17,364 nt of DNA from a virus (taxonomy: Duplodnaviria; Heunggongvirae; Uroviricota; Caudoviricetes), in the IMG/VR virus record IMGVR_UViG_2703718840_000006; one strand, 5' to 3'. Made by a program: the position numbers and the translations under genes. Below, in pieces: positions 1,791 to 17,364 of this stretch (its first letter is position 1; the number at the start of each line of letters is the position of its first letter). The notes beneath the pieces are model-generated. The model did not search any database. It was not told the origin of the DNA and saw only the letters and a list, made by a program, of their open reading frames with translations.

Positions 1791-3336
1791 ATAGTTCCCT
1801 CACTTTCATGCGAGTAATAATTTGTAGAAGTTTATCAAGATTATCAAATCTATAGAGATCTAATCGAATGTTGTTTGTTTCCGTCATGCACATTTTATTA
1901 TATTCGTTTTCAATCTTTGGTATGATATAAAAATCAAGAGGTGAAATATTTTGTGAATTCATTCGTATAACAATTGTTATGTCTGCTTTCTGTGAGTTAT
2001 CAAACCGGACTTTCCATCTAAGTTTACCTGATTTCATATGTATGCATTTAGTAACAAGGACGGAAATTAAAAACTCATCATTGATGTAAAGCATTGGGGC
2101 ATATTTATACTCGTCTATATGACAGTTACTTTTTAAAATTTCACCCTTAAAATCCTCAATTATCTCTGAGTAAAATGATCTTAGTGCTTCATTTATTTTG
2201 AGATAGCTGTAATCATGTTCTGGCTTATAACCAATCAAAGTATATGCTCTTAAAAGACCACCAAATCGGGTTCTATAAACAGAAGATGAAGGGCCTGTAT
2301 CATCTTCATCAATGATAAAGCCTGATAGTTTTCCATTAGATTCTAATTTTTGTTTTAGTTTTTCTAATAGATCTTCATTAGTCAAATGAATGGATCGGAG
2401 CTGAATTATTTCTTGAGCTTTATTGTATTTTTTCTTTGAAATAATAGGTTTATATGCCTTGTCACATCTAACCCATTCATGTTTGGGGTTTTTTACAAGC
2501 CTACTTTTTAATTTAGATGAGGTTTTGTTATATATGTTGTTTCCAATATATTTTTCATTTGTCAAAATTTGATGTATTTTTGCACGAGTCCATAATGTTC
2601 CATTTTCTGCAGGTATGTTCTGTTCATTTAATCTCTCAGCAATAATGAATTCTGGGACGTTATTATCTATAAAGAGATCATATATTCTATTTACAATTTT
2701 TATTTCATTTTTTGGTCCCGGAATTAATATTACCCTATCTGTTTGAATACTCTTTCTTTTGCGGAAACTCAATATTTCTTTAGCTATGCCATTTTCGTCT
2801 ACTAAAAGACGTCTCAGCCCATAACCAGCCATACCGCCTTGATGATAACCAAGCTTTATTAAATTTACTTGCCCTATAAATACCTTTTCAGATAGATTCC
2901 TGCTGTGATATGCAGCACTAGATCTTTTTATATTCAGTATAACAGAGGACTCTAAAGGGAAATCTTTAGTGGGTATAGGTTCGGAACAATATATAAGATC
3001 TACACCATTTCTCTCAAATAGAAAGGAATAATATGCCGCTTCATCACTATTTTGAAAACGACCAAAACGGCTCACATCATAAAATAATACAGCCTGTATA
3101 TCTATTTTCTTTTGTTCTACATCGCTAAGTAACTGCTGCAAAGAATGCCTGCCTACGATACTGACTCCGCTCTTACCTGCATCATCGTAGGTATAAGCGA
3201 TTTCCATATTGTTCTTTTCAGCATAATCTTTGATATATTCGGACTGATTATGTAAAGAATATTGCTGATGGTCGGTAGACATCCTCAAGTACTGCGCGAC
3301 CCTAACTCTATGATTTTTGTCATTTTCGCTAGCCAT
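1780..3336 (-). CDS. Large serine recombinase (resolvase catalytic domain plus recombinase domain, divergent C-terminus)
   Basis: 518 aa. N-terminal YLRMSTDHQ (catalytic Ser context) and DDAGKSG; recombinase-domain-like GYHQGGMAGYGLRR. No clear CxxC zinc ribbon seen in the C-terminal ~200 aa. GAGG lies 9 nt upstream of the ATG at 3336. Confidence 0.75.
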   Translation of the reverse strand: MASENDKNHRVRVAQYLRMSTDHQQYSLHNQSEYIKDYAEKNNMEIAYTYDDAGKSGVSIVGRHSLQQLLSDVEQKKIDIQAVLFYDVSRFGRFQNSDEAAYYSFLFERNGVDLIYCSEPIPTKDFPLESSVILNIKRSSAAYHSRNLSEKVFIGQVNLIKLGYHQGGMAGYGLRRLLVDENGIAKEILSFRKRKSIQTDRVILIPGPKNEIKIVNRIYDLFIDNNVPEFIIAERLNEQNIPAENGTLWTRAKIHQILTNEKYIGNNIYNKTSSKLKSRLVKNPKHEWVRCDKAYKPIISKKKYNKAQEIIQLRSIHLTNEDLLEKLKQKLESNGKLSGFIIDEDDTGPSSSVYRTRFGGLLRAYTLIGYKPEHDYSYLKINEALRSFYSEIIEDFKGEILKSNCHIDEYKYAPMLYINDEFLISVLVTKCIHMKSGKLRWKVRFDNSQKADITIVIRMNSQNISPLDFYIIPKIENEYNKMCMTETNNIRLDLYRFDNLDKLLQIITRMKVRELYAA

Positions 3337-3506
3337 GCACGAAACCTCATGGATGATTCAATACAATGTAGTGGATAAAATTGATCAAATTTCAACCGAA
3401 TTCAACTGTTTTATCATTGATTAGAGCGAATTTGGTAGATCTTCGAGGTGTATGATAATCGAGAAGAGATGTGAATTATTTAGCTGATATGACCGACAGC
3501 TTTCGT

Positions 3507-3556
3507 TATGTGGACTCAATGTCCCCATTTGTAAATGGCTATGCTTAGTCCACATA
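3507..3556. repeat. Nested inverted repeat (10-bp arms TATGTGGACT/AGTCCACATA around an inner CCATTT-GT-AAATGG palindrome)
   Basis: Read directly: perfect 10-bp arms at 3507-3516 and 3547-3556, inner palindrome at 3525-3538. Lies between the integrase stop and the recombinase start. Candidate protein-binding or recombination site; no U-tract, so not a canonical terminator. Confidence 0.4.
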
Positions 3557-3618
3557 GGTTAATGGTGTGATTATTAATTCTTTAACTAAATCAAGATAGT
3601 TAATCCATCATGGGAGAG

Positions 3619-4848
3619 TTATGCGGCAATAACTTTGCATTTTTGAGACGAAACATAGTCACTCCACCATTGCATGAGAACCACCCGTTCAGTGAGATAC
3701 TCTGCACGATTGTAGGCTGCAATTATTTCATCTTTCTTCGAGTGGGCAAGGGCGGCTTCTAAGACATCAGTCCTAAACTTGCCAGACTCCTCAGCAGCCG
3801 TTCTAGCAATGGATCGCATACCGTGAGCTACAAGCTCACCTCCGAAACCCATACGGATTATGGCCGCATTAGCTGTTTGTTCATGCATGTGATTGAGTGG
3901 AGCTTTGATACTGGGGAACACCCACTCTCTATGCCCGCTGATGACTTTCATTAAATCCAAAACTCGCAAAGCTTCTTTGCTCAGTGGAACTTTGTGAGGC
4001 TTCTTCATTTTCATAAACTCCGCCGGGATGTTCCACATGCCAGTTTCAATATCAATATCTGACCATCTTGTGCGAACAGCTTCACCTGGGCGAACCCATG
4101 TGAGAAGTTGCCACTCAATCAGTAGCCTTGTTTCCAAACGGATAGAAGCATTGTTTAGAGCAACCAAGAAGCGAGGGAGTTCGGAAGGGGGTAATGCTGG
4201 CATATTCTGTTTTTTTGGCTTGCTGAACCGTTGCCCCAGGTTGTCTGCCGGGTTGAATTCTATGAGTTCTTCTGTTGCTGCATAGCGGAAAATTTCATTC
4301 AGGCGGGATATGATGCGGCGAAGTGTTTCAAGGACACCTCGTTTTTCTATGGGTTCTAAATGCTGTTTAAGCATTTTAGGGCGAATCTCCTTAATTGGGG
4401 TATCACCCAATGTGGAAAAGATATTTCTCTCTAGGCTTCGCCAGATGTCGTTAGCATGATCTTGGGAGATGCCTGACGTTTTGACTTTCTCATCAAGCCA
4501 CTTCTTGGCTACTGCTTGAAATGTATGTTCCGTGGCATCTTTCAGTGCATTGGCTTTTTGGTTGTTATGAACTTGGGGGTCTATACCATTTGTAAGCAAC
4601 GACAAGTATTCATCACGTAAAGCTCGTGCCTTCGCAAGTGTAAGGTGAGGATAGGTTCCTAAGCTCACCTTAGTTCGCTTTTTGGTCACAGGCACTGCAT
4701 ATCTGAAATACCAATTTTTCTTCCCTCCCTTCGCCAGGGGAGCGATTCGCAACAGCAAACCATCGCCGTCAAAAAGGTTAACCTCTTTTTCGGCAGGTTT
4801 GGTGCTTTTGATTTCAGTGTCAGTGAGCTTCTTAGCGATTTTGGCCAT
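3619..4848 (-). CDS. P4-type tyrosine integrase (arm-binding N-terminal domain plus catalytic domain)
   Basis: Start chosen at the internal ATG (4846-4848, MAKIAKKLTDTEIK) with GAGGG upstream; the track ORF extends to 4929 with a non-canonical start. N-terminal KLTDTEIKSTKP...LFDGDGLLL...WYFRY is typical of P4-like integrases; C-terminal HGMRS and AAYNRAEY supply the HxxR and catalytic Tyr. Lies immediately downstream of the ssrA 3' fragment, same orientation. Confidence 0.85.
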   Translation of the reverse strand: MAKIAKKLTDTEIKSTKPAEKEVNLFDGDGLLLRIAPLAKGGKKNWYFRYAVPVTKKRTKVSLGTYPHLTLAKARALRDEYLSLLTNGIDPQVHNNQKANALKDATEHTFQAVAKKWLDEKVKTSGISQDHANDIWRSLERNIFSTLGDTPIKEIRPKMLKQHLEPIEKRGVLETLRRIISRLNEIFRYAATEELIEFNPADNLGQRFSKPKKQNMPALPPSELPRFLVALNNASIRLETRLLIEWQLLTWVRPGEAVRTRWSDIDIETGMWNIPAEFMKMKKPHKVPLSKEALRVLDLMKVISGHREWVFPSIKAPLNHMHEQTANAAIIRMGFGGELVAHGMRSIARTAAEESGKFRTDVLEAALAHSKKDEIIAAYNRAEYLTERVVLMQWWSDYVSSQKCKVIAA

Positions 4849-5014
4849 GTTTGGGACCCTCGATTTTAGGACCCATCTTCGTGGGTCCCATTCAGGGTGC
4901 CATAACTCGTAGTTCTCAGCAATTCTCACTAGACTACAATAGACGTAAAAAAGCCCGCAGAGCTTGTGCTGTGCGGGCTTAGTAGACTTTACTGAACTTC
5001 AGTACATCAATATT

Positions 5015-5119: not shown

Positions 5120-6019
5120 TTATGTCTGGATGTGGTCGTCAACACATCCTCTTTTAAATATAGGCGCTTTTACCTTAGTTGGATCATCTGTTTTAAAGAT
5201 TTTCAATCGTTCACTGAAGAACATTACCTCAGATCCTTTGTACCGATCTTGAGCACTGTAGTTTATTCCATATACTAATGATGATGTCTTATACATAGCT
5301 TGGATCTCAGGAGTGTTATCGTAAGAAACAATCCAAGGCGTTTTAATATTATTCTGTACGACTTTTGCAACCCTAACATGATCATCATGATCATAATGGT
5401 TGATATATAAACCTTTACCTTTTATGTAATAAGGTGGATCCAAATATGTTAATGAGTTTTGTGGCAATTGAATAACTATTTTTTTTATGAAATCAATTGC
5501 ATCCATGTTATATAAATCTATTCTGTGACGATTTTCTGATATTTTATGGATTCGAGAAATCAAATCACTCTTATTATAGCGAGCGTCAAGCTTCCATTTC
5601 CCTTCTTGATTTTTACCGCCAATTACACCACCTTTTAATATTCCAGAACGATTTGTTCTATTGAGAAAAAAGGTTGAGAAACCAATTGTTAAAAGATCAT
5701 GGTCTTTAGGATTATTAATTATATCTTTCTGCCTAAACCATTCATCCATTGTAACTTCTGTTCTTTCAATTAAAGAACATAATTGATCTGCATGATTTAA
5801 TACACTGTGCCAAAAAGCATAAACAGAAATATTAATATCATTAAGGATGATTTTTTCAGCTGCATTTAGATGTAACAGTTTCAATGCTAAACCAGCACCC
5901 CCAGCATATGGTTCGGCATAATGTATAGGCGAAAGATTATTTTCTTCAATAATCCGAAGCATGAAATTTGCAAGCTTGCCTTTACCGCCAGGATAGCGAA
6001 GTGGGGTGTTAAAACGCAT
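5120..6019 (-). CDS. Dam-family (D12 class) N6-adenine DNA methyltransferase
   Basis: 299 aa. Motifs in Dam order: LRYPGGKGK, YAEPYAGGAGLA (AdoMet-binding), FFLNRTNRSG, YLDPPYY (catalytic DPPY). GAGG lies 6 nt upstream of the ATG at 6019. Target sequence cannot be read from sequence. Confidence 0.85.
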   Translation of the reverse strand: MRFNTPLRYPGGKGKLANFMLRIIEENNLSPIHYAEPYAGGAGLALKLLHLNAAEKIILNDINISVYAFWHSVLNHADQLCSLIERTEVTMDEWFRQKDIINNPKDHDLLTIGFSTFFLNRTNRSGILKGGVIGGKNQEGKWKLDARYNKSDLISRIHKISENRHRIDLYNMDAIDFIKKIVIQLPQNSLTYLDPPYYIKGKGLYINHYDHDDHVRVAKVVQNNIKTPWIVSYDNTPEIQAMYKTSSLVYGINYSAQDRYKGSEVMFFSERLKIFKTDDPTKVKAPIFKRGCVDDHIQT

Positions 6020-6053
6020 ATGATACCTCTAAATGTCAGATCTAAAGTATATC

Positions 6054-6092
6054 AAAAAAAGGGCTTTATGGCCATCACATAAAACCCTTTTT
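6054..6092. terminator. Bidirectional intrinsic-terminator-like hairpin between the ATPase and methyltransferase genes
   Basis: A7 (6054-6060), stem GGGCTTTATG / CATAAAACCC (one mismatch) with 7-nt loop (6061-6087), then T5 (6088-6092). On the minus strand the hairpin is followed by a U7 run. Confidence 0.45.
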
Positions 6093-6098
6093 AATCAA

Positions 6099-7832
6099 TT
6101 AGTTATCTGACAGATATGATGAGATGGTAGCAGAATCGACACCATGTCCACTTATCATAATAACTTTAAGACTCTTTATTAGTTCATTCTTGAAGCTATC
6201 CGATTGCACAGGATTTTTCTCGACCCAATATCGATATGGGTTATCTTTAACTCGTCCTTTGACTTGGTCCTGAAATTGAGTCGTATGTGCAAAATCTTTA
6301 AACAGTTTTCTCACTCTCCCGCCATGATTTTTGTTAACTTTTTTATAATTATCTATAAGGATTTTTAAATCAATCGGAGCGTTACCAATCTTTAGCGTTG
6401 TAATTATGTCTTTAGCTGTTTTCATAAAAACAGATTTTGTAAATTTATTTTTATTTTCCCAATATGCATCATCAGGTGGTAAATTATATAAAAACTCAAA
6501 AATCATTTGGTCTGGAGGTAAGGTGCTTGGAAGCAAACATAAGTTTTTTTCTTTTTTGGCTTTTTTTGCATTAGCACTGTTGTCGTGAACAACATCACCG
6601 TCTAAGACGATCAAGCTTTTAGCTGTAAATTCTGGTATTTTTCTTGCCATTAAGTCAAGCATGGCAGAGCAGCTAATATTTATATTTCCTAATGGATTTA
6701 ATATTTTATTTATTTTTCGATCTGTTATCAATTGTTTGAAAAAGTCGAAACCTTCTTTGTCTTCAAAATATACATTTGCTTTTGGAAGACAAATGTCATC
6801 ATTAATTTTTACAGTTTCAACATGTAAATCAGCGTGGATATCTGTCCATGAAAGATTATTCTTTGTTTTAATATCTCCATATGTGTCTGTAAGATATATT
6901 GTTTTAAAGCTATCACTATCTTGTTTTGAACGATTATAGATATCCTCTATTATTAATGGAGAGTGCGAGGTCATGATTATTTGCAGATCGTATTGTTTTG
7001 CTGCTTTAGTTAGAATATTAATTAGCTCTAACTGTGCAGCAGGGAAAAGACCTGCATCGGCTTCATCAATTAACAATATTCCGCCATGATAATCAGAATA
7101 AGTTTCCTTCAATCTTTTAAATGAAAAAATTGCTTGGATTAATTGTCCAACATTATCTTCACCAACAGATACTGATTGGTGATCATAATTGTCACCATGG
7201 ACAACCATTGAATCGATAGTACCTTTTGTTGCTGTTACTGAGCTTCCATTGTTTTTTAGTAAGAGTTGGTTACTCATCATTCTGATTTCATCAGAATTTT
7301 CATTGATGTACTGAACATCCCGTGTTGAGTAATCAGTCCTTAATGTAATAGGAAGAAGTCGTGCTAAGCTTAAAAAAATAACAGGATGAGTAACGTTTCT
7401 ACTTTGGTTTTTTTCCGGTATTGAATCATTTCCCCTGACTACAGGCCTTGATTTATCTCTGTCACTGTAGCTGTATAAACCTAATGTTAGTTTTTCAAGA
7501 TGTTTGTTCGATGCACCATCATAGACACTAATTTTGACGTCCATTGAACCAGGAACATCAAATTGTTCTGAAAGCCTAAAATGTTCGCTGAAAGCTGACT
7601 TGAAGCTGCCATTTGTTAATGTTTTATATTGTGTTAAATCAGTCTCAGGGTTTTTGGTAAAGTCCTTTGTAAAGCTAAATATTTGGGCGATAATGCCAAG
7701 AATTGTGGATTTAGATGTGCCATTTTTACCACAAATAACAGTTAGGCGAGAACCAAACTCGATGTTTATATTTTTCAGTCCGCGAAACTTCACAACATTT
7801 ATATTTTTTAGTTTGGTAATTTGATTTGCCAT
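6099..7832 (-). CDS. ABC/SMC-type ATPase with TOPRIM-like C-terminal region (OLD-family or fused PARIS-like nuclease candidate)
   Basis: Walker A GKNGTSKST, Walker B ILLIDEAD, H-loop IMTSHSP. The C-terminal ~250 aa contain FEDKEG and LDGD acidic motifs about 55 residues apart, consistent with TOPRIM (not verified). Start placed at internal ATG 7832 (MANQITKLKNI; GGAG upstream; Walker A then sits at the usual distance); the track ORF starts at 7883 with no SD. Confidence 0.7.
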   Translation of the reverse strand: MANQITKLKNINVVKFRGLKNINIEFGSRLTVICGKNGTSKSTILGIIAQIFSFTKDFTKNPETDLTQYKTLTNGSFKSAFSEHFRLSEQFDVPGSMDVKISVYDGASNKHLEKLTLGLYSYSDRDKSRPVVRGNDSIPEKNQSRNVTHPVIFLSLARLLPITLRTDYSTRDVQYINENSDEIRMMSNQLLLKNNGSSVTATKGTIDSMVVHGDNYDHQSVSVGEDNVGQLIQAIFSFKRLKETYSDYHGGILLIDEADAGLFPAAQLELINILTKAAKQYDLQIIMTSHSPLIIEDIYNRSKQDSDSFKTIYLTDTYGDIKTKNNLSWTDIHADLHVETVKINDDICLPKANVYFEDKEGFDFFKQLITDRKINKILNPLGNINISCSAMLDLMARKIPEFTAKSLIVLDGDVVHDNSANAKKAKKEKNLCLLPSTLPPDQMIFEFLYNLPPDDAYWENKNKFTKSVFMKTAKDIITTLKIGNAPIDLKILIDNYKKVNKNHGGRVRKLFKDFAHTTQFQDQVKGRVKDNPYRYWVEKNPVQSDSFKNELIKSLKVIMISGHGVDSATISSYLSDN

Positions 7833-7890
7833 GTTTGTATCTTGCTCCGTAAAATGGCCACAAATTGTGGCCAATAGTTTCATGCTTGGA

Positions 7891-9057
7891 TTATATTGTT
7901 ATCTTCTTCAAGCTTGTTTGTCCATCATATTCCTTCAGATATGAGCCATAGTGCCTGAAAAGCATCTCCGGTCCTTTATGCCCCATTTGAGCTGCAAGCC
8001 AAAACAGGTTTGCTCCTCGGCTGATATGGCTGGTGGCGAATGTATGCCTGGTTTGATATGGATTTCTGTATCGAATACCTGCTTTCCGCAATGTTGGAAC
8101 CCATGCTTTTTTCCTGATTGCATCAGCACTTGCCCAAGGCTTATTGGTCTTTGGGTCTTCAAAGACAGTAGCATCCTTCATGAATGTAAATGGCTTCTGA
8201 TTTATCAGCGCCAACATTGCTTCTTCTGTCAGTTCAACTTTACGAGTACCTGCTTTTGTCTTTGTCCCTTTGATAACACCGACAACACTTGCGCTCTGGA
8301 CATGGGCAGTTTTTCCAACAAAGTCGATATCACGCCATCGAAGGGCACATAATTCAGAACTACGCAGGCCTGTATGTATAGCGAACCGGAACAGATTCTC
8401 CCATTGTTTGTTTCCGGCTGCTGCTAGTAATGCATCAACTTCTGCTGGTGATAGCGGATCAACCACGTAGCTGCTTTCTGCTTCTGACTTATCACTTTGG
8501 TAGCGCGAAGCAGTTACCAACGATACGGGGTTAATTTGAAGTACCCCATCGGTTACGGCTTCATCAAGTGCTGACCGCAGGAAAGATAACTGGTTGCGAA
8601 TTGTTTTTAAGGTCGTTTTCTGGCTTTGAATCCACGCTTTCAGGATTGCTGGTGTTAATTCACTTGCAGGGCAAATGTGGAGTGAGGCTAACGCACTACG
8701 GCATTTTTTATAACCACCAATCGTTGAGGGTGAGAGTTTTCTCGTTTCGCAGATTTCAAGGTATTCGTCCAAGTACATTTTTACCGTTTTGCCTGCAGCA
8801 GCATTACCAAAAATTTTCAAACGAGCAGAACGGGGAAAATATTCCGCATAAATGAATGTTCCCCTTTCGATCTTATTATGAATTTCGCCGAGTGTGCGCT
8901 CGGCGTATTTAATGTTCTTTGGTGTTACTTCCAGATTGGAAAGAGGCTCACGACATTTAACTCCTTTATAGGTGAAAGTTATATTGATCGTTTCGCCCTG
9001 GCGGTGTTTCCTGATTGTTACGCCGCGCGGTAGTTTGAGCAGTTTTGTCTGGCCCAT
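7891..9057 (-). CDS. int: Lambdoid-type tyrosine integrase
   Basis: 388 aa. C-terminal catalytic signature QTRHTFATSH...GH...RHYGSY. Preceded by an overlapping excisionase-like gene. Transcribed toward the ssrA-derived att side, as in lambda. Confidence 0.85.
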   Translation of the reverse strand: MGQTKLLKLPRGVTIRKHRQGETINITFTYKGVKCREPLSNLEVTPKNIKYAERTLGEIHNKIERGTFIYAEYFPRSARLKIFGNAAAGKTVKMYLDEYLEICETRKLSPSTIGGYKKCRSALASLHICPASELTPAILKAWIQSQKTTLKTIRNQLSFLRSALDEAVTDGVLQINPVSLVTASRYQSDKSEAESSYVVDPLSPAEVDALLAAAGNKQWENLFRFAIHTGLRSSELCALRWRDIDFVGKTAHVQSASVVGVIKGTKTKAGTRKVELTEEAMLALINQKPFTFMKDATVFEDPKTNKPWASADAIRKKAWVPTLRKAGIRYRNPYQTRHTFATSHISRGANLFWLAAQMGHKGPEMLFRHYGSYLKEYDGQTSLKKITI

Positions 9058-9224
9058 TTTGCAACCTCACTAAGATCAATCCACCTCTCCTTAACGCCTT
9101 CAACCTTTAAAACCTGAACACCTTCACGCCAAACACCGCGCTGTACACGTTTGTTTATTGCTTCAGGAGTTTCGCCAGTTTCTTTGCAATAAGTTGAGAT
9201 TGGAACACAATCGAGGTTCAGCAT
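9018..9224 (-). CDS. xis: Excisionase-like small DNA-binding protein (recombination directionality factor candidate)
   Basis: 68-72 aa; ATG at 9224 with GGAG 7 nt upstream (the track start at 9236 is GTG). Winged-helix-like pattern (ISTYCKETGETPEAINKRVQRGVW...WIDL); overlaps the int start, the classic xis-int arrangement. Family assignment by pattern only. Confidence 0.55.
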   Translation of the reverse strand: MLNLDCVPISTYCKETGETPEAINKRVQRGVWREGVQVLKVEGVKERWIDLSEVAKWARQNCSNYRAA

Positions 9225-9283
9225 ATGTTTCTCCACTTAGCCCGCTGCACACGGGCAGTAATATCAAATTCCAGTCCTGATAA

Positions 9284-9499
9284 TTAATTTTGTTCCCTGG
9301 TTGCTACCTGTTTTATTGGCCTGATGCTGTCCAGTAGCAGACGGCGACGCATGTTAGGTGCACCCCAACGGTAACCAGTCTTTTTGTCGTAGGATTCACA
9401 ACGTCCGGCAACCCAGGACGTTTCAGTGGAATGTAATTTCATCCGCTTTTCACCGTCTCGGGTGATAACAATTCCTGTATGAGTTTTTATCACGCTCAT
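9284..9499 (-). CDS. Hypothetical small phage protein (position of yfdT in KplE1-like operons)
   Basis: 71-aa ORF overlapping the upstream gene by 4 nt (operon context). No motif recognised. Confidence 0.45.
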   Translation of the reverse strand: MSVIKTHTGIVITRDGEKRMKLHSTETSWVAGRCESYDKKTGYRWGAPNMRRRLLLDSIRPIKQVATREQN

Positions 9500-9858
9500 T
9501 TCTTAGTCTCTGGTGCTTTCGGCATTACTGCCCAGTGAGTGATATTGACGTTTTCAAGGTCCCCGACCTGAAATGTCCACTGCCATTCTCCGGTTTCTTT
9601 TTGTCCCCAGGTGTACCAGAGAGAACGCCAGCCAATCAGCCAGCCTTCTCCGTTAGCATCAAATAACAGAACACTTTCATTTGCTGGAGGCAGTTCAGCT
9701 GACACTGGTATTATTTTGCTTTCCAGTGCCGCACATTTAGCTTCAAGCGCGTCGAATTTACGTACCAGGTACTCAGCATTTGTTTCGTTCACTTTCAGAT
9801 CTCGCGGTACACATTTCCCGCGAAGAAACCCTTCCATTTCGAAAACATTCATGCGCAT
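9496..9858 (-). CDS. DUF551-like phage protein (YfdS-like by size and synteny)
   Basis: 120 aa; Trp-rich C-terminus (GWLIGWRSLWYTWG...ITHWAVMP) resembling DUF551. Same size and operon position as E. coli yfdS, from memory. Confidence 0.5.
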   Translation of the reverse strand: MRMNVFEMEGFLRGKCVPRDLKVNETNAEYLVRKFDALEAKCAALESKIIPVSAELPPANESVLLFDANGEGWLIGWRSLWYTWGQKETGEWQWTFQVGDLENVNITHWAVMPKAPETKK

Positions 9859-10385
9859 TTGCGTAATTCCGATAATTCGTTAAAGCGTTTCATAAACATC
9901 CCGTAGGCATGGCCTGGAGCCAGTGGAATAACTTTGAACATCTCTGTTGCCGGGATACCTTCCAGTACAGGCCAGAAAGAGCCATCATCAAGCCCGAGAT
10001 CGCGGCGTTCGGTTGCCAGCATGATGAGATCGGCATATTTCACGGGCGTGCTCATAACCGGGGGTAACCCGTATTTCTCACGGATGACGACGTCTATTTT
10101 TTCTTCCATCCGTTTATAGTCAGGAAGAAGTCGTTTCAGTGGTGCGGGGATGTCCTGGCAATACGCTTCTGTTGCATCATGCATTAACGCTTCAAAAGCA
10201 AATTCCTGCGGCACCAGCTGGCTGCAAAGCACTGCATGCTGGGCGACACTGTAGAAGTGTGAAAGATGTCCTGCAAAGCGACAGATATTTGAAAGGGAAA
10301 CCGCGATATCGTTAATCACGATGTCGTCTTTATTTATCTTGTCATAATAAAAATGCTTCCCGGAAAAAGTTTTAATAAATGACAT
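9849..10385 (-). CDS. HD-domain phosphohydrolase (YfbR/YfdR-like 5'-deoxynucleotidase family)
   Basis: HD motifs (SHFYSVAQHAVL; LMHDATEAY). Start placed at ATG 10385 (MSFIK; GGAG 7 nt upstream), giving 178 aa, the size I recall for YfdR; the track ORF starts 9 codons earlier. Confidence 0.75.
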   Translation of the reverse strand: MSFIKTFSGKHFYYDKINKDDIVINDIAVSLSNICRFAGHLSHFYSVAQHAVLCSQLVPQEFAFEALMHDATEAYCQDIPAPLKRLLPDYKRMEEKIDVVIREKYGLPPVMSTPVKYADLIMLATERRDLGLDDGSFWPVLEGIPATEMFKVIPLAPGHAYGMFMKRFNELSELRKCA

Positions 10386-10512
10386 TTTGTTCTCCACGTA
10401 TATGCGCTGCACCGCGCTGAATTTTGGTTAAAGAAAACCCTCGCCATCAGGCGATTATTGAGTCAATTATGTTTCCATAAATGCCCCCGCAGGGGCATTT
10501 GCAGTAAGGAAA

Positions 10513-11337
10513 TCAGGCGGTAAAAGTACCAATAAAGGTTTCTACTTTGCTGTCTTTGAATTTCTCAACAAGCAGATCACGAAATTCGTTAGCCATTTCT
10601 TCCTGCACTGCTTCCAGCTGAATAATGCGCAGAACCAGTACCGGACGATCGCCAGTGATAATGCTGAGGCGTAATTTAAACGGACGTTCTTTCAGGCCTT
10701 CAAACGGAACGCATTTAAATTCAAATGCCACTGGCATAATGTCTTTGGTCTTCGCTTCGACAGATTCCATCAGGGAGCGTTTGCCGCTGAAGTCATTATC
10801 TTCAAAATCAGCGGTCTGGTTTGCTTCAATCGTGATTTTACGGACTGCCGCAGCCGCTTTTGTTGCCTGAATGGCGTCACCATTAGCATCAAAGCCCACA
10901 AGGTAGTCGGCCCAGTCTTCAATCCATTCTGCCAGTGACTTCTGGGAGTTACGCTCGCCGTTAACAGACAACAGGGCAGAGAACGGTGCTGTCTTTTTCA
11001 GTTTGAGAGTGGCAGTGTTATCTGCGTGACCTGGCTCATCAATAGTACCCAGGTTAAGCACACTGACGGCACGCATATTATCGGCATCGATAAAGCAGCG
11101 GGTGCCTTCATCTGCAAGATCTTTAGAATAACGGGTAAAGTCATCGATGCTGGCAGTGGAAAGCGCACCACGGAAACGGAAACGATTTAAATTAAATTTT
11201 TCCAGATCATGAATGCGGAAATTCTCAGGCAATGCCACAGCATCGGCACCAATCTTACTGATAATTTCATTAACACCCTGAGCAGAAATAAGGGCATGGA
11301 TTTGATTAATTGCGGTTGCGTCTAAGTTCTGAGACAT
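10513..11337 (-). CDS. DUF2303-like phage protein (YfdQ-like by size and synteny)
   Basis: 274-aa ORF, the size I recall for E. coli YfdQ, in the same operon order. No catalytic motif recognised. Confidence 0.6.
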
Positions 11338-11402
11338 AATAAGTCCTCACTATATAAAGATATTCAGTGATGAGATAAATAATCAGTTTATTAAGTATGA
11401 TA

Positions 11403-11765
11403 TTAACGACCTGCTGCGCGGAGTTTTCCGTCAGGTTCACCGGCAAGAGTCAGTAATTGTCCCTGGTCTTCCTGCAGAATAGTCAGGCGACCACCGCGAT
11501 TGACATACATCGGCGTTTCGGTGGTGTCTTCTTCGGAAATTTTCCCGCGGTTAGTCGGGCGAACATATGAGAGTTTGTGTTTGATTTTCACACGGTTCTC
11601 ATCAAATGGTTCGATTTCCAGGTTGAGTGAGACCTTACCTTTGGTTTTCGTGTTCATCACACCGGAAGCGACTTCACTGAGAACTGCGCCGATTTTTGTT
11701 TCAAATACGCCGCCGTCCAGCTCCCCGATAAATGCCTGCACATCAGTACTGCGTTCGCTAGCCAT
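11403..11765 (-). CDS. Hypothetical early-left phage protein (YfdP-like by size and synteny)
   Basis: Start set at the internal ATG (MASERSTDVQAF) with AGGAGC 7 nt upstream, giving 121 aa. The 197-aa track ORF has a Cys/Arg-rich N-terminal extension that overlaps the leader and looks non-genic. Confidence 0.55.
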   Translation of the reverse strand: MASERSTDVQAFIGELDGGVFETKIGAVLSEVASGVMNTKTKGKVSLNLEIEPFDENRVKIKHKLSYVRPTNRGKISEEDTTETPMYVNRGGRLTILQEDQGQLLTLAGEPDGKLRAAGR

Positions 11766-12373
11766 TTTGTTGCTCCTCATCATATCGACCCTGCAAGGCC
11801 GATTAGTTTCTCCACAAAACAGAGAAGAACACCTGCGGTGGCAGCCGCCCGGATGGATTGGGTTATGAGCCCGTCGTCCGGTGATGCTCTTCTCTGTTTT
11901 GTAAAAAGAGCGGTACCAGCCGGAAGCAAGTGTACAAACTGGTACCGCCAAAGCAGTGGCTGTTGTGGTGGGGTTGTCACTCAGGCGTATGGTCAACCTG
12001 ACAATCCGGTGTCCTCAACGGGGAAAGAGTAACCCCGCCATACTTACCGCCGCGCCATTTCGCGGATGACCACAACGCTGAGAGCACTTAGCCAGTTACG
12101 GCACCACACTTTGTCGCGGCTCCATAAATGCCCTCATCGTTGCACCCTGGTCTCTTCCCAGGCGTCAAACCGGATCGCCACGCTGGTTAGGCGTCTTATC
12201 AGCATCATCATTGACTTGCACATTCCGGCTACCTGGTTTGTTTGCCCTAGCAAGGAGTGGATTGTCCCCTTTAACGTCCCCAGACCGCTAACGACGCATG
12301 TGCCATACGCCGTGTTACAACCAAATTTTGTTAGTACCTTGTTTGTTGGTCTGGAAAGAAAGATAAAATGAAA

Positions 12374-12411
12374 TTGCGCGTTGTGCAAGTGCTTTGTTGC
12401 GGGATATGCAA
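12374..12411. promoter_or_regulatory. Candidate OL operators: two 15-bp TTGC-N7-GCAA sites, with probable leftward pL
   Basis: TTGCGCGTTGTGCAA (12374-12388) and TTGCGGGATATGCAA (12397-12411); the first is nearly identical to an OR site (TTGCGCGTTAAGCAA, 13180-13194). Just downstream of the cI terminator, as in lambdoid immunity regions. Confidence 0.45.
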
Positions 12412-12428: not shown

Positions 12429-12446
12429 AGCCACCTTCGGGTGGCT
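12429..12446 (-). terminator. Intrinsic terminator downstream of cI
   Basis: Perfect 7-bp stem AGCCACC/GGTGGCT with TTCG tetraloop; on the minus strand it is followed by UUUUCAUU. Located 20 nt after the cI stop. Confidence 0.5.
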
Positions 12447-12466: not shown

Positions 12467-13159
12467 TTAATTGTGTCGCTTAAGGGTTTGTGACTGGCTG
12501 ATTAAGACCTTTCCAAAGACCATAAACCGGTGTTCATTTTCGCTGGTAATTCCCCATTCACGGTAAATCTGGTTATCAGAAATCACCAGTAGTTTGTCAG
12601 GTATCATTTGCAGTCGTTTGACATAAATTTTATCATCAAAACCAAATACATAGATACCATCTCCATCAAACTGATTGATACTGACATCAACGAAGATGAG
12701 ATCTCCTGGCTCAATGGTTGGACACATACTGTCCCCACGAACGTTGATAACTTTAATGTGATTGGCTGGTCGTCCGCCAAACATCGATACAGCATTATCA
12801 GTTCTGTATTCAATGGCATGAATCACATCAATGACATCACCGCCCTGGATAAGGCCATTTCCCGCACTGGCACTGACATCCAGCATTTCAATACGGAATA
12901 CATCCTTCACCTGCGCAACATCCTCACTAATACTGTTTTTACATACAGTATTACTTTTGAAGTCTGAGGTAAAGAGATCAGCAATATCAACACCTAAGCT
13001 CCTGGCAATATTACTCAGGGCTTGTTCAGTGAATTGTTTCTGCTTACCTGTTTCCAGGCGTGAGATATTCGCCGCATCCACTCCTATTGCTTCAGCGAGA
13101 TCGGCGATTTTCATGTTCTTCGCCTGGCGAAGTTGTCTGACTCGATTTCCTATGTTCAT
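12467..13159 (-). CDS. cI: CI-like phage repressor (HTH_XRE N-terminal domain plus S24 LexA-like autopeptidase domain)
   Basis: 230 aa. N-terminal HTH (IADLAEAIGVDAANISRLETGKQ); C-terminal S24 signature GDSMCPTI (Ser nucleophile) and downstream VKR (Lys). Divergent from a cro-like gene across an operator-rich 97-bp intergenic region. Confidence 0.9.
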   Translation of the reverse strand: MNIGNRVRQLRQAKNMKIADLAEAIGVDAANISRLETGKQKQFTEQALSNIARSLGVDIADLFTSDFKSNTVCKNSISEDVAQVKDVFRIEMLDVSASAGNGLIQGGDVIDVIHAIEYRTDNAVSMFGGRPANHIKVINVRGDSMCPTIEPGDLIFVDVSINQFDGDGIYVFGFDDKIYVKRLQMIPDKLLVISDNQIYREWGITSENEHRFMVFGKVLISQSQTLKRHN

Positions 13160-13256
13160 GCGTTTATTACATTTCTTTATTGCGCGTTAAGCAAATCAAC
13201 TTGCGCAAAATAGTTGCGTGAAATAATATGCTTATCACGCAATATGTGGAGGTTAT
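13160..13256. promoter_or_regulatory. OR-like divergent promoter/operator region between cI and cro
   Basis: TTGC-N7-GCAA site at 13180-13194, degenerate copy ATGCTTATCACGCAA at 13228-13242, palindrome TTGCGCAA at 13201-13208, inverted TTGCGTGA/TCACGCAA arms. Candidate pR: -35 TTGCGC (13201-13206), 17-bp spacer, -10 TAATAT (13224-13229). GGAGG RBS at 13248-13252 before the cro ATG. Confidence 0.55.
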
Positions 13257-13394
13257 ATGCAATCACCATTACGGAATGTGCGTAAAGCGCACGGATTTAC
13301 TTTGCAGCATGTTGCTGCGGGCGTTCAGGTCAATCCAGCGACGCTGAGTCGTATTGAAAGACAGGAACAAATTCCATCTACCGTCCATGAATGA
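13257..13394 (+). CDS. cro: Cro-like HTH protein, C-terminally truncated by a deletion junction
   Basis: 45-aa ORF not in the supplied track (too short). HTH_XRE-like segment FTLQHVAAGVQVNPATLSRIERQEQ. The ORF ends abruptly where lambda-G-like sequence begins. Confidence 0.55.
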   Translation: MQSPLRNVRKAHGFTLQHVAAGVQVNPATLSRIERQEQIPSTVHE

Positions 13395-13581
13395 AGCCGT
13401 TAAACAGATTGAGCAGGAAGTGCTTACCACCTGGCCCACGGAGGCAATTTCTCATGCTGAAAACGTGGTGTACCGGCTGTCTGGTATGTATGAGTTTGTG
13501 GTGAATGATGCCCCTGAACAGGCAGAGGACGCCGGGCCTGCAGAGCCTGTTTCTGCGGGAAAGTGTTCGACGGTGAGCTGA
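13387..13581 (+). pseudogene. G: Remnant of tail assembly chaperone G (C-terminal part only), fused to the truncated cro region
   Basis: Translation PSMNEAVKQIEQEVLTTWPTEAISHAENVVYRLSGMYEFVV...PVSAGKCSTVS matches my recollection of the lambda gpG C-terminus. ATG at 13387 overlaps the cro stop (ATGAATGA); no SD. N-terminal half of G is absent. Confidence 0.6.
13557..13563 (+). other. Programmed -1 frameshift slippery heptamer G GGA AAG (G-T frameshift site)
   Basis: GGGAAAG in the lambda X XXY YYZ register relative to the G-fragment frame (GCG GGA AAG). The downstream T-like ORF is in the -1 frame and overlaps by 19 nt. Confidence 0.6.
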
Positions 13582-13997
13582 GTTTTGCCCTGAAACTGGC
13601 GCGCGAGATGGGGCGACCCGACTGGCGTGCCATGCTTGCCGGGATGTCATCCACGGAGTATGCCGACTGGCACCGCTTTTACAGTACCCATTATTTTCAT
13701 GATGTTCTGCTGGATATGCACTTTTCCGGGCTGACGTACACCGTGCTCAGCCTGTTTTTCAGCGATCCGGATATGCATCCGCTGGATTTCAGTCTGCTGA
13801 ACCGGCGCGAGGCTGACGAAGAGCCTGAAGATGATGTGCTGATGCAGAAAGCGGCAGGGCTTGCCGGAGGCGTTCGTTTTGGCCCGGACGGGAATGAAGT
13901 TATCCCCGCTTCCCCGGATGTGGCGGACATGACGGAGGATGACGTAATGCTGATGACAGTATCAGAAGGGATCGCAGGAGGAGTCCGGTATGGCTGA
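13563..13997 (+). CDS. T: T portion of the tail assembly chaperone G-T frameshift product
   Basis: ORF in the -1 frame relative to the G fragment with no ATG of its own (track start is GTG). Sequence (FDGELSFALKLAREMGRPDWRAMLAGMSSTEYADW...GVRYG) matches my recollection of lambda gpT. Its stop overlaps an ATG GCT GAA CCG GTA (MAEPV) H-like start. Confidence 0.6.
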   Translation: MFDGELSFALKLAREMGRPDWRAMLAGMSSTEYADWHRFYSTHYFHDVLLDMHFSGLTYTVLSLFFSDPDMHPLDFSLLNRREADEEPEDDVLMQKAAGLAGGVRFGPDGNEVIPASPDVADMTEDDVMLMTVSEGIAGGVRYG

Positions 13998-14031
13998 ACC
14001 GGTACCCGGTGGTAATGGCTGCAGGGGCTGA
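13990..14031 (+). pseudogene. H: Five-codon remnant of the tape-measure gene H start (MAEPV) followed by out-of-context sequence and a stop
   Basis: ATG overlapping the T stop encodes MAEPV (lambda H begins MAEPVGDL in my recollection), then PGGNGCRG and a stop. Implies a deletion junction near 14005. Confidence 0.4.
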
Positions 14032-14239
14032 CTCAGGGCAGTGGGACGTTATGACATGGAGTGATGCTGATAATCAGCAGGTGAAACTGTCGATGACGGA
14101 ACTGGAGGAGCTGGCTGCAGCTATGGCGCAGGCGCAGGTTGATCGCAATAATGAGATTTATCGTCATCAGCGTGAAATGAAAGAGGAACTGAGCAATCTC
14201 CTGGATTTGAAGCAGGTTAGGGAGTTCAGTCCAGAATAA
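14009..14239 (+). CDS. Hypothetical ORF or gene fragment in the tail-fibre region (no ATG start, possibly a remnant)
   Basis: 76-aa track ORF with a non-ATG start, downstream of the H deletion junction. Helical-looking sequence with no recognised motif. May be the 3' end of a deleted gene. Confidence 0.3.
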   Translation: MVMAAGADSGQWDVMTWSDADNQQVKLSMTELEELAAAMAQAQVDRNNEIYRHQREMKEELSNLLDLKQVREFSPE

Positions 14240-14332
14240 GAAAAAACGTAGTACATCGTATTCAAGAGGATCTATGCTGGCATCGTAGCTGTTTTTAAAC
14301 AGTAAGTAGCCGTTGAAGGTCACAGGGGAAAA

Positions 14333-14695
14333 ATGCTCTTTGACTTGGCTTCCGGGGACGCACTATTTATCTCTGAACCAGGCCCATTAGCGGAAAATGT
14401 CACCTGGTTGTCGCCGGAAGGGGAATATCAGAAGTGGAACGGTACAGCCTGGGTGAAAGATGCAGAAGCAGAAAAACTATTCCGGATCCGGGAGGCGGAA
14501 GAAACAAAAAACAGCCTGATGCAGGTAGCCAGTGAGCATATAGCGCCGCTTCAGGATGCTGTAGATCTGGAGATCGCAACGGAGGAAGAAAATTCGTTGC
14601 TGGAAGCCTGGAAAAAGTATCGGGTGTTGCTGAACCGTGTTGATACATCAACTGCACCTGATATTGAGTGGCCGATAATTCCTGTAACATCATAG
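14333..14695 (+). CDS. tfa: Tail fibre assembly protein (lambda Tfa family, short form)
   Basis: 120 aa; ATG with AGGGGA upstream. Sequence [14 protein letters not shown]...[19 protein letters not shown]...[25 protein letters not shown] closely matches my recollection of the lambda Tfa C-terminal two-thirds. Confidence 0.8.
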
Positions 14696-14807: not shown

Positions 14808-15761
14808 TTACCATATATCTATGGGTTTTGTTTTCTGCTCATCTAAACAAAATGCACAGATGTAAGCCCCCTTACTTCGGTTGTACTGAACCGTTTCTAA
14901 AGCAGAGTCAAGATGTTTACTATCAAAGTTCCAGCTTTTTTCCATAACAGAAACACATTTTCTGCAATAGAAACTTTCTTTTGAGTTAGTATCTCCTGAA
15001 TCATTTTTAGTGTAGCCAAAGAATTTTTTTGCTGATTCCTTTGAACATGCGGAAATGGCTGCAGTGAACTCATAATGAGTTTGAAGCATAGCCCATACAA
15101 TACCTGAAAATTCTTCATCCTCGTCTTCATCTAATCCTATATTAATGCCGCCAGAGGAATGTATTGCTTTATATTTATACCTATGCCATATCCAGTGTGC
15201 TGATTCAGTATTTAGATAGTTGTGAGCACGTACAACTGATGTGAAAATTAGCTCTGGCATTATATCTGTTTTTTTATCAACCGTATGCATAAAACGATTT
15301 CTTAGAATGCGCATACTATTAAACCAAGTAATAAAGTCATCAGGCAGTGATTTAGAGGCGAAAGTATTATATACTTTAATTAAATCTTGGGCGTCTAATG
15401 TGTGGAAGTCTGAAAATGAAATGTTACCTTCACTATCAGGTTTAGGTGTATTGCGAGTTGCATTCGTGATAAGTAGATAAGGTGATATTTCGACGATAAG
15501 TCCTTTTAGTCTGAATTCAATGGATTGAAGTATCAAATTAAAAGATGTAATCAATTTGGGTCTAGCAAATAACCAATAATGCTCTAAATTTTTAATATCT
15601 GATTCTGTATAGAATTCAGACGTTTTACAATAACTATTCCAAAGGTTTATATCTCTGTAATCATAAGCTAAATCGGCAATTTTTTCCCAAGCCTCATTTA
15701 CCATGTGGTCAGCCATTGTATAAAAATCAGTCTTTGTTGGAATGTCAGTTATCATTATCAA
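14808..15761 (-). CDS. HEPN-motif protein, Abi_2 (AbiD/AbiF)-like, with C-terminal CxxC...CxxC zinc ribbon
   Basis: 317 aa, AT-rich. Mid-protein ILRNRFMH matches the HEPN Rx4H motif and the Abi_2 RN..AH context. C-terminal CRKC-(28 aa)-CAFC. Own AT-rich upstream region. Confidence 0.5.
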   Translation of the reverse strand: MIMITDIPTKTDFYTMADHMVNEAWEKIADLAYDYRDINLWNSYCKTSEFYTESDIKNLEHYWLFARPKLITSFNLILQSIEFRLKGLIVEISPYLLITNATRNTPKPDSEGNISFSDFHTLDAQDLIKVYNTFASKSLPDDFITWFNSMRILRNRFMHTVDKKTDIMPELIFTSVVRAHNYLNTESAHWIWHRYKYKAIHSSGGINIGLDEDEDEEFSGIVWAMLQTHYEFTAAISACSKESAKKFFGYTKNDSGDTNSKESFYCRKCVSVMEKSWNFDSKHLDSALETVQYNRSKGAYICAFCLDEQKTKPIDIW

Positions 15762-16531: not shown

Positions 16532-16900
16532 TTAAATATTTAGCAGATCCTCTACAATATCATTAAACCCAGATGCCTGTTTAGATACAGAATTGAATAA
16601 GTCTCTAAGTGCTTGTGTTTGCTCAAAAGTTTCCCAAAGTGTTTTATAACTTGGCGTTACAATTGCTAATACTAAGCCTTCCGCCCATGACCATTCATGT
16701 TCATCAAAATAGTAGCGATATTTTCTGCTGTATATAACAAAATCCTTTTCCTTATATTTAGCATGAAACACAACTTGAATTATATCCTGTGTACCATTAA
16801 CAAGGTTTTCAGGCGCATCAATTGCCATCCAATTTATCATTTTTTGGACAGTTAACTTATTTAATGAAACAATTAGCTTTGTGGTTTTATCGTTATGCAT
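16532..16900 (-). CDS. Hypothetical protein, second gene of a coupled two-gene operon
   Basis: 122-aa ORF; ATG 2 nt after the stop of the upstream ORF. AT-rich. No recognisable motif. Confidence 0.5.
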   Translation of the reverse strand: MHNDKTTKLIVSLNKLTVQKMINWMAIDAPENLVNGTQDIIQVVFHAKYKEKDFVIYSRKYRYYFDEHEWSWAEGLVLAIVTPSYKTLWETFEQTQALRDLFNSVSKQASGFNDIVEDLLNI

Positions 16901-16902
16901 AA

Positions 16903-17364
16903 TTAGTCCAGTTGCATATCTTTCACAATTTCGTTAACTCTTGAGTTGAGTATACTCAACTTCTCATAGAGCTTCCAGGCTTGGTCTTGGTCATTGATAT
17001 TAATGGAGATTTCTTTTCTTCGAAAGATTCCTTTGGGTTTGACTTCATCAAAAAATATATCAATCTTTGAGCGTTCCTTGGTTGGAAGCCTGCTGAAAAG
17101 GCTTTCAGTTAGCACTGCACACTCAGTAAACTCCTTACGTATAAATTCTTTCTGAGTAACCCAGTCTCCAATAGCATCATTTATCAATGAGGCTTTTTTT
17201 TGAAGATTGCTATGGATTTCAGGTATTCGAACCTTGTTTCTGAGAGTGGCCTTCAATGAACGCGTCGTAAAAAAAAGTTTTACAGTTACAACAAAACCGA
17301 CAATACCCGCTAGGGAGGATATGTCAGTTACCGTCTGTGATAGGGGCCAAGTCAGGATATCCAT
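16903..17364 (-). CDS. Hypothetical membrane-anchored protein (N-terminal TM helix); 5' end at the window edge, may be partial
   Basis: 153-aa ORF whose ATG is the last three bases of the window. Hydrophobic segment ISSLAGIVGFVVTVKLFF near the N-terminus, then a charged soluble domain. Confidence 0.45.
   Translation of the reverse strand: MDILTWPLSQTVTDISSLAGIVGFVVTVKLFFTTRSLKATLRNKVRIPEIHSNLQKKASLINDAIGDWVTQKEFIRKEFTECAVLTESLFSRLPTKERSKIDIFFDEVKPKGIFRRKEISININDQDQAWKLYEKLSILNSRVNEIVKDMQLD

Follow-up and report, generated by a model that had tools for sequence, protein, structure and literature searches.

The closest described relatives of the locus analyzed here are the yfdPQRS genes (b2359–b2362) of the Escherichia coli K-12 prophage CPS-53 (KplE1) and the early-left operons of lambdoid phages, in which a cluster of yfdP, yfdQ and an HD-domain gene is common and has been named in LLS, ST64B, phiNP and ArgO145 (PMC12315714). 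K-12 YfdR binds DnaA directly via domain I, in a manner dependent on Phe46, and does so in competition with DiaA and DnaB (PMC4776307; Noguchi & Katayama 2016). A plasmid carrying yfdP–T suppresses the over-initiation of hda-185, and the minimal multicopy set with this effect is yfdQ and yfdR together with either yfdS or yfdT; the same set blocks initiation in dnaAcos, seqA, DARS and diaA backgrounds and in the wild type, and extracts inhibit oriC replication in vitro (PMC4776307). Here we describe a copy of this cassette in a 17,364-nt stretch of a Caudoviricetes virus (IMG/VR record IMGVR_UViG_2703718840_000006; hereafter, the window) with regard to gene identity, mosaic context, operators, leader structure and the pairing of YfdP with YfdQ. 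The cassette itself is already known, being partly characterized in K-12 and listed in earlier work among the common early-left modules of lambdoid phages; what is new is a leader RNA, just upstream of it, that is in no RNA family library.

Open reading frame (ORF) calls confirmed a minus-strand array of five genes, comprising yfdP (11403–11765; 120 aa, 363 nt counting the stop codon; Pfam PF27127, phrog_204), yfdQ (10513–11337; 274 aa; DUF2303, phrog_210), yfdR (9849–10385; 178 aa from ATG, the longest ORF starting at a GTG and encoding 187 aa; HD-domain phosphohydrolase, phrog_318), yfdS (9496–9858; 120 aa; C-terminal DUF551 domain, phrog_583) and a gene that we call orf71 (9284–9499; 71 aa, basic with an isoelectric point (pI) of 10.4; phrog_1226, a family of unknown function). 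The first-pass annotation of this DNA had given the same array and, apart from 121 aa for the first gene, the same sizes. The successive intergenic distances are 65, 127, −10 and −4 nt, and Shine–Dalgarno-like sequences precede the start codons of yfdP (GAGGAG), yfdQ (GAGGA) and yfdR (GGAGAA). Comparison with the proteins of K-12 MG1655 (blastp) revealed 98.3% identity for YfdP, 99.3% for YfdQ, 97.8% for YfdR and 98.3% for YfdS across 118 of 120 residues, the last two of which differ; all four matches had E-values of 1e-88 or better, and gene order and spacing were the same, in agreement with the identification that had been drawn earlier from gene sizes and order; the outcome named as refuting it, a lack of similarity to the K-12 Yfd proteins, did not arise. 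At the DNA level the match is one colinear block of 2280 nt (window 9505–11784; 97.1% identity), the edges of which lie 19 nt 5′ of the yfdP ATG and two codons short of the yfdS stop. Codon differences from K-12 yfdPQRS amounted to 39 synonymous versus 12 nonsynonymous changes, indicating that the cassette genes are under purifying selection. On these alignments, it is near certain that the window genes are the K-12 CPS-53 yfdPQRS cassette. The 71-aa gene, which had been grouped with that module, fared differently: blastp revealed no similarity to YfdT beyond a 19-aa chance match at E 6.8, and by sequence comparison orf71 falls outside the K-12 module, K-12 having the unrelated yfdT in that place. 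NCBIfam holds no models for the cassette proteins.

Beyond yfdS the two loci diverge, since K-12 continues with yfdT, ypdJ and torI, whereas the window continues with orf71, an excisionase gene (xis; 9018–9236, minus strand; 72 aa from GTG, annotated in RefSeq as 68 aa from ATG; phrog_2917, E 1.6e-45) and a tyrosine integrase gene of the phiNP type (int; 7891–9057, minus strand; 388 aa). xis and int are adjacent on the same strand with a 40-nt overlap, in contrast to KplE1, where intS and torI sit at opposite prophage ends. In blastp against K-12, the best match of the integrase to IntS covered only 39 aa at 31% identity, and the excisionase had no match to TorI, which bears out the earlier statement that the integration module is not of the TorI/IntS kind. 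The further description of it as lambda-style holds for the arrangement, with xis directly upstream of int at the distal end of the operon, and not for the integrase itself: Pfam detected Arm-DNA-bind_2 (PF12167), Phage_int_SAM_5 and Phage_integrase, and no lambda-type N-terminal arm-binding domain, the class being judged from these domains and from the phiNP integrase as the closest relative found rather than from a direct alignment to lambda Int.

The junction between the cassette and this integration module proved to be widespread. Megablast showed the stretch int–xis–orf71–yfdSRQP–gap–cI at 98–99% identity in many complete E. coli genomes, where RefSeq labels it as a site-specific integrase, hypothetical proteins, the 5′-deoxynucleotidase yfdR, a YfdQ family protein, YfdP and an XRE regulator. 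Flanks were also classified for 80 IMG/VR contigs with a YfdQ 99–100% identical to the window copy; retrieval of related loci by YfdQ alignment gave only such near-identical E. coli prophage copies, and more distant context was taken from annotated phage records. Across the 80 contigs yfdP-Q-R was almost constant and yfdS was present in about half; the downstream flank was of the K-12 type (yfdT with or without torI), of the window type (orf71–xis–int) or of another type, and the upstream flank was of the window type (gap and cI) or of the K-12 type (yfdO side), in many combinations. Such free combination of flanks around a near-identical YfdQ indicates that the junction is ordinary lambdoid mosaicism. 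The cassette has thus indeed been joined to a different integration module, as had been proposed, and the join is nothing special, being found in many E. coli genomes, in phiNP and among the shuffled flanks. Since the cassette is known and the junction is routine, the feature that had been singled out adds little on its own.

Unlike the deleted prophage of the window, phiNP, Salmonella phage ST64B (sb35–sb37) and E. coli phage LLS (gp37–39) are complete phages; they share with the window a cI-like repressor, a long leader, yfdP, yfdQ, an HD gene, xis and int. A close version at 66–85% DNA identity is that of phiNP, a functional phage of Citrobacter, without yfdS and orf71, and its gene plan runs cI-like gene, long gap, sb37, DUF2303 gene, sb35, further genes, xis, int and an AAA ATPase gene, the last of which also follows int in the window. 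Its xis–int is 85% identical to that of the window over 1810 nt, whereas the yfdQ–yfdR coding DNA is about 66% identical and the YfdQ protein 59%, and a methyltransferase and an exonuclease lie between the HD gene and xis in place of yfdS and orf71.

Upstream of the cassette, the window encodes a cI-like repressor (12467–13159, minus strand; 230 aa) with Pfam HTH_3 and Peptidase_S24 domains, the latter of the self-cleaving kind, and matches to phrog_4 and phrog_6201; it is followed by an intrinsic terminator, a terminator-like hairpin with a T-run (12429–12446, minus strand). Two left operators of the 16-nt ATTGCGCGTTGTGCAA type (repeat family D1) lie at 12373–12388 and 12396–12411 on the minus strand, and a third copy is present at 13179–13194, in the spacer between repressor and cro, inside a larger inverted array. 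A putative PL promoter overlaps the left operators at about 12360–12388 (minus strand; −35 TTGCAC, 17-nt spacer, −10 TATCTT); it was read by eye, and a consensus promoter scan did not report a promoter there. Because one operator family is common to the cI/cro spacer and to the region upstream of the leader, and because the repressor has an S24 domain, the operon is best regarded as cI-controlled. From the putative promoter, a 5′ leader of about 590 nt without a credible ORF extends to the cassette. An N-like gene was sought in the 700-nt gap and rejected, there being no credible ORF. Within the operon, a terminator-like hairpin (UCGCCUGAUGGCGA plus GGGUUUUCUU; 10441–10454, minus strand) occupies the yfdQ–yfdR spacer, which fits the listing of yfdPQ as a transcription unit in K-12 (PMC9181523).

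The prophage around the operon is incomplete. A cro-like ORF starts at 13258, and homology to intact relatives ends at 13380; beyond this point, within 13563–14695, are fragments of minor tail protein T, a DUF4376 protein and a tail-fibre assembly protein (Tfa). At the other side, homology to another lysogen ends at about 5000, and no att repeats were found within the window. Judging from this gene content, the prophage is a deleted, cryptic remnant that retains the immunity region and the whole early-left arm. The loss of everything from mid-cro to the tail genes, next to cassette ORFs that are intact and under purifying selection, could suggest that the cassette is domesticated and kept for host tolerance of oxidative or DNA-damage stress by slowing initiation, as could the reported increase in H2O2 sensitivity on deletion of CPS-53, yfdQ or yfdS and the binding of the K-12 host regulator SrsR to the yfdO/yfdP spacer. 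We consider domestication distinctly unlikely: in place of the SrsR-bound K-12 spacer the window keeps control of the phage type, with cI, operators, a cI-controlled promoter and a structured phage leader, and the cassette is equally intact in functional phages, which means that its conservation does not require a benefit to the host.

The 200 nt preceding yfdP (11766–11965) folded with a minimum free energy of −87 kcal/mol (z −6.5). In the direction of transcription, this region contains a terminator-like hairpin (11910–11949, minus strand; GGCGGUACCAG / CUGGUACCGC followed by UCUUUUU), recognized from sequence and RNA folding, the T-run of which is kept at this position in most related leaders; a three-way-junction RNA (11809–11907, minus strand) composed of a 25-bp outer stem, an inner stem-loop and a variable hairpin; and a small hairpin whose loop reads UGCAG (11785–11802, minus strand; RNA fold). 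The last of these lies some 20 nt ahead of the ribosome-binding site of yfdP and has counterparts in related leaders, their stems covarying and their loops reading (G)UGCAG. The inner stem-loop of the three-way junction has a 22-nt core, GACGGGCUCAUAACCCAAUCCA (11854–11875, minus strand), containing an initiator-tRNA anticodon arm; the segment CGGGCTCATAACCC of this core matches the E. coli initiator tRNA metZ exactly in the anticodon arm. Among 17 diverse copies of the leader, from one of which the structure was derived, 95.2% of the alignment cells held standard pairs, and 6 pairs (20 cells) showed compensatory double changes; in a control in which pairing partners were slid, 41–55% of the cells were paired and at most one pair showed compensatory changes.

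This leader RNA is shared with phiNP and ST64B; positions 11846–11951 are 85% identical to phiNP, compared with 66–68% for the adjoining coding DNA. The exact 22-nt core was found in at least 120 IMG/VR viral contigs and in 35 species-representative genomes, mostly of Enterobacterales. Where 1.5 kb of downstream sequence was available (92 viral copies), the next genes were YfdP–YfdQ in 63 and YfdR directly in 13, with other genes in the remaining 16. K-12 CPS-53 lacks the leader RNA, its homology to the window beginning 19 nt before yfdP. Rfam gave no minus-strand match to the leader even at E-values up to 5, and a literature search with the core sequence string found no paper.

Two described kinds of RNA resemble the leader in part. 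It has in common with HK022 put that both are structured cis RNAs of a lambdoid early leader with no N gene at that position, whereas put comprises two hairpins in about 70 nt; identity with put was rejected, the core being absent from the HK022 PL/PR region. The likeness to tRNA lies in the core, which copies the initiator-tRNA anticodon arm, and in free-standing variants with an acceptor-like stem ending in NCCA. That the leader is a tRNA or a tRNA remnant was also rejected, given that ARAGORN reported no tRNA in the window, that Rfam was likewise negative and that the structure has three helices rather than a cloverleaf. A free-standing variant of about 70 nt stands beside real tRNAs in Klebsiella phage RCIP0034 (about 2508–2577), downstream of the Q antiterminator, where neither ARAGORN nor Rfam reported it, and others are present in ST11-VIM1phi8.1 and several IMG/VR loci. 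The free-standing variants have the same core and a covarying inner stem, but their outer stem is another one, resembling an acceptor stem and terminating in ACCA or GCCA; they may represent an unusual tRNA-like RNA.

We tentatively propose, at somewhat less than even confidence, that the leader at 11809–11907 belongs to an undescribed class of structured RNA in enterobacterial lambdoid phages that controls or protects the expression of YfdP–YfdQ. It may act through processing by RNase III or RNase P, through translational control or through antitermination; alternatively, it may bind the ribosomal P-site, IF3 or MetRS, or serve as a decoy for nucleases that attack the initiator-tRNA anticodon. 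Short hairpins rich in GC and with (G)UGC(A)G loops are found repeatedly, at 10404–10417, 10483–10496 and 11786–11801 (minus strand); they precede the yfdP and yfdR ribosome-binding sites by about 15–20 nt and also directly follow yfdQ. Some viral contigs lack yfdPQ and have the leader fused directly to the hairpin following yfdQ and to yfdR. These observations suggest that the small hairpins mark module junctions or act as processing or translation signals.

The product of yfdQ matched Pfam PF10065 (DUF2303) at 309.7 bits, against a threshold of 26.6, over residues 7–272 of 274. By tblastn, YfdQ was found in 184 phage records, including Stx, cdtI, Vibrio, Xanthomonas, Halomonas, Thalassomonas and Acinetobacter phages, and an exhaustive HMMER scan placed the family in 1798 clusters at 50% identity. 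The best 150 of these 1798 clusters were mostly single-domain proteins of about 265–280 aa, along with a few shorter fragments, and contained no domain fusions hinting at function. Apparent fusions of PF27127 with PF10065 were discarded: the proteins concerned, at 99% identity, were truncated or fused gene calls that most probably arose as artefacts of frameshifts. Gene order was inspected in seven divergent phages (ArgO145, phiNP, two of Vibrio and one each of Xanthomonas, Halomonas and Acinetobacter). A YfdP homolog lies directly upstream of YfdQ in six of the seven, and one small ORF separates the two in Vibrio vB_VpP_1; hhalign supported the homolog with a probability of 98.5–100% in the six records other than phiNP, where the gene upstream of YfdQ carries the name given to the YfdP homolog in ST64B, sb37. 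YfdP–YfdQ is thus a conserved core in seven very different phages, which adds context to the known cassette.

Structure prediction, which had been proposed as a follow-up, yielded AlphaFold (AF2) models of YfdQ and YfdP with a predicted local distance difference test score (pLDDT) of 78 and 72, respectively, and no fold match. In the YfdP model, one helix is accompanied by three long strands that run antiparallel and by a conserved tail (residues about 70–105). The sole solved relative of YfdQ is PDB entry 9o7m, "YfdQ Protein" (E 1.2e-44), which contains 36 identical chains and is nearly the same in sequence as YfdQ of Xanthomonas phage Olaya; no publication on it was found in the literature searched, and a PDB sequence search gave no match for YfdP or YfdS. 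From the 36 chains of 9o7m and from a fold search whose library (cut-off April 2026) does not include that entry, YfdQ probably builds large homo-oligomers, with a fold that has no counterpart among those compared.

Large homo-oligomers are also formed by annealing proteins, and where the neighbors of YfdP–YfdQ are named, in several of the phages checked, they include genes for SSB, exonuclease, RecT, Ref or DnaQ-like proteins. The pair, with or without YfdR, might accordingly be read as an accessory device for DNA recombination or repair, for instance an oligomer handling DNA ends or single-stranded DNA, with the DnaA effect as a side effect of overexpression. Such a role would suit the 22% of lambdoid phages that have no recognizable Rec module, some of which carry the yfd cluster (PMC12315714), as well as the weak sensitivity of a yfdQ deletion to methyl methanesulfonate and H2O2 that has been reported and the invariant residues of YfdQ, which include many Arg as well as His, Glu and Asp. 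However, ArgO145 has YfdP–YfdQ in addition to a full Gam-RecT-Exo-SSB set, from which a 2025 survey argues against a role in recombination (PMC12315714); YfdQ is acidic, with a pI of 4.97 and a net charge of about −10, and fold comparison revealed no resemblance to Rad52, RecT, Erf or Gam, nor to a nuclease of any kind. We therefore regard a DNA-handling function as unlikely.

The HD motifs that had been noticed in the third gene are present as H50 and H69-D70, and YfdR matched phrog_318 at E 3e-109 and the HD protein of PDB 2gz4 at E 6.5e-13. Matches to the Pfam families YfbR-like and HD_3 were both under their thresholds. With E. coli YfbR, a 5′-deoxynucleotidase, YfdR shares the HD motif, the weak YfbR-like match and the RefSeq product name 5′-deoxynucleotidase; in contrast, it scored 19.3 bits against the YfbR equivalog model NF003009 of NCBIfam, whose cutoff is 122, and is hence not a YfbR orthologue, and its affinity for nucleotides is reported to be much lower. 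For K-12 YfdR, a weak 5′-deoxynucleoside monophosphate phosphatase activity has been reported, along with low nucleotide affinity (PMC4776307). YfdS passed the gathering threshold of DUF551 (PF04448) narrowly, with 22.1 bits versus 22.0 over residues 50–117; DUF551 is a portable domain that occurs in some Ea22 variants too.

The first-pass annotation had called the module functionally uncharacterized and had suggested host-takeover or anti-defence functions, including manipulation of nucleotide pools by the HD enzyme. The first statement is contradicted by the published binding of YfdR to DnaA and block of oriC (PMC4776307) and by the RefSeq name. As an anti-defence module, the cassette would let YfdR reshape or deplete nucleotide pools, possibly signaling ones, and would use YfdP–YfdQ as a sponge or inhibitor of host immunity; its early, accessory and mosaic position is typical of counter-defence genes, large homo-oligomers are common among sponges, and HD enzymes are able to degrade nucleotides. 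The evidence nevertheless makes this very unlikely. The low nucleotide affinity reported for YfdR (PMC4776307) weakens the idea of pool manipulation, YfdP–YfdQ is kept at uniform length across hosts with very different defences, unlike fast-evolving inhibitors, and no experimental or homology link to known anti-defence proteins was found. PADLOC returned no match for YfdP, YfdQ, YfdR, YfdS or orf71, bearing in mind that it holds models of defence rather than anti-defence systems; we found nothing in support of an anti-defence role.

The proposed takeover function finds its closest parallels in lambda P, a small protein that binds the host initiator and blocks initiation, targeting domain III of DnaA, and in Bacillus subtilis SirA, which, like YfdR, binds DnaA domain I at the residue equivalent to Phe46 (PMC4776307). 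Neither has any sequence or fold relation to YfdR, an HD phosphohydrolase, and YfdR, in contrast to both, requires YfdQ plus YfdS or YfdT in vivo. We thus take the resemblance to be one of mode of action, not of family membership.

Our favored explanation, which we hold to be reasonably probable, is that the region is the repressor-controlled takeover operon of a defective lambdoid prophage, which blocks host initiation through DnaA. The cI-like self-cleaving repressor would hold the promoter and its two operators (about 12360–12411), and cleavage of the repressor, presumably induced by the SOS response, would release leftward transcription through the leader of about 590 nt, yfdP–yfdQ, a weak terminator, yfdR–yfdS–orf71 and finally xis–int. 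The yfdPQRS block is the mobile cassette that K-12 CPS-53 also has, shuffled among lambdoid phages at short junctions, of which one is located 19 nt ahead of yfdP and another within the final yfdS codons. YfdR would occupy DnaA domain I at Phe46 in competition with DiaA and DnaB, and YfdR, YfdQ and YfdS together would shut off oriC initiation while the phage replicates, takeover in a real induction being our extrapolation; YfdP–YfdQ is the evolutionarily conserved core pair, situated in DNA-metabolism neighborhoods. The DnaA binding and the block of initiation have been shown by others, under overexpression, for proteins 98–99% identical to those of the window, and the takeover mechanism is moderately supported.

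Several findings weigh against takeover through DnaA. The initiation phenotype requires multicopy expression, a yfdQRST deletion has no initiation phenotype, with the authors allowing for an overexpression artefact, and yfdP is dispensable for the phenotype (PMC4776307); since YfdP is dispensable and yet accompanies YfdQ more faithfully than any other protein does, the core function of the pair may be a different one. Outside enterobacterial phages, the HD gene is not kept beside YfdP–YfdQ, which makes the pair the conserved core and yfdR and yfdS enterobacterial add-ons. The models of YfdP and YfdQ gave no convincing match to a solved fold, and no family match gives a biochemical activity. 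In addition, the genes for replication, lysis and the head, and most of those for the tail, are gone from the window prophage, and a takeover function can therefore no longer serve phage growth here.

Other elements of the window lie on both sides of the prophage arm. Directly after int is a low-GC (32%) two-gene cargo (5120–7883, minus strand), of which the first gene encodes a 594-aa AAA_15/AAA_21 ATPase with PtuA, AriA and GajA-type ATPases as its best PADLOC matches (E ~1e-20) and the second encodes a Dam-like methyltransferase with a PD-Lambda-5_B match at E 6e-124; the cargo probably represents a defence system carried by the phage, although the ATPase was not confirmed as PD-Lambda-5_A. 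A separate integrated element (1–4929, minus strand) adjoins the left end of the prophage at about 5000 and contains a P4-type tyrosine integrase (3619–4929), a large serine recombinase (1780–3336) and two ParB/RepB-like genes (1–1790); in another lysogen, the type III secretion system effector genes espK and espN are found in place of this element. On the right side, a match to the Rfam small RNA model IS009 (14454–14652, plus strand; 220 bits, E 2e-54) lies inside the tail-fibre assembly ORF, and three low-GC ORFs of 317, 122 and 153 aa (14808–15761, 16532–16900 and 16903–17364, minus strand) without a Pfam match may be cargo of the prophage end.

Taken as a whole, the earlier interpretation of this locus is partly supported: it was right on the identity of the cassette and on the different integration module, and it overstated both the novelty and the lack of characterization. 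The yfdPQRS cassette is in most E. coli genomes, and the analysis points to two gaps around it, namely the YfdP–YfdQ pair and a leader RNA, strongly structured and with covarying stems, that imitates the anticodon arm of initiator tRNA and has no entry in Rfam; an unexplained protein pair and an uncatalogued RNA raise the interest of the locus modestly. The pair is spread over phages of Vibrio, Xanthomonas, Halomonas and Acinetobacter as well as of Escherichia, and its activity is a gap worth opening. If the leader is indeed such an RNA class, the "known" yfd cassette would be the visible part of an unstudied phage system made up of the leader RNA and a YfdP–YfdQ machine.

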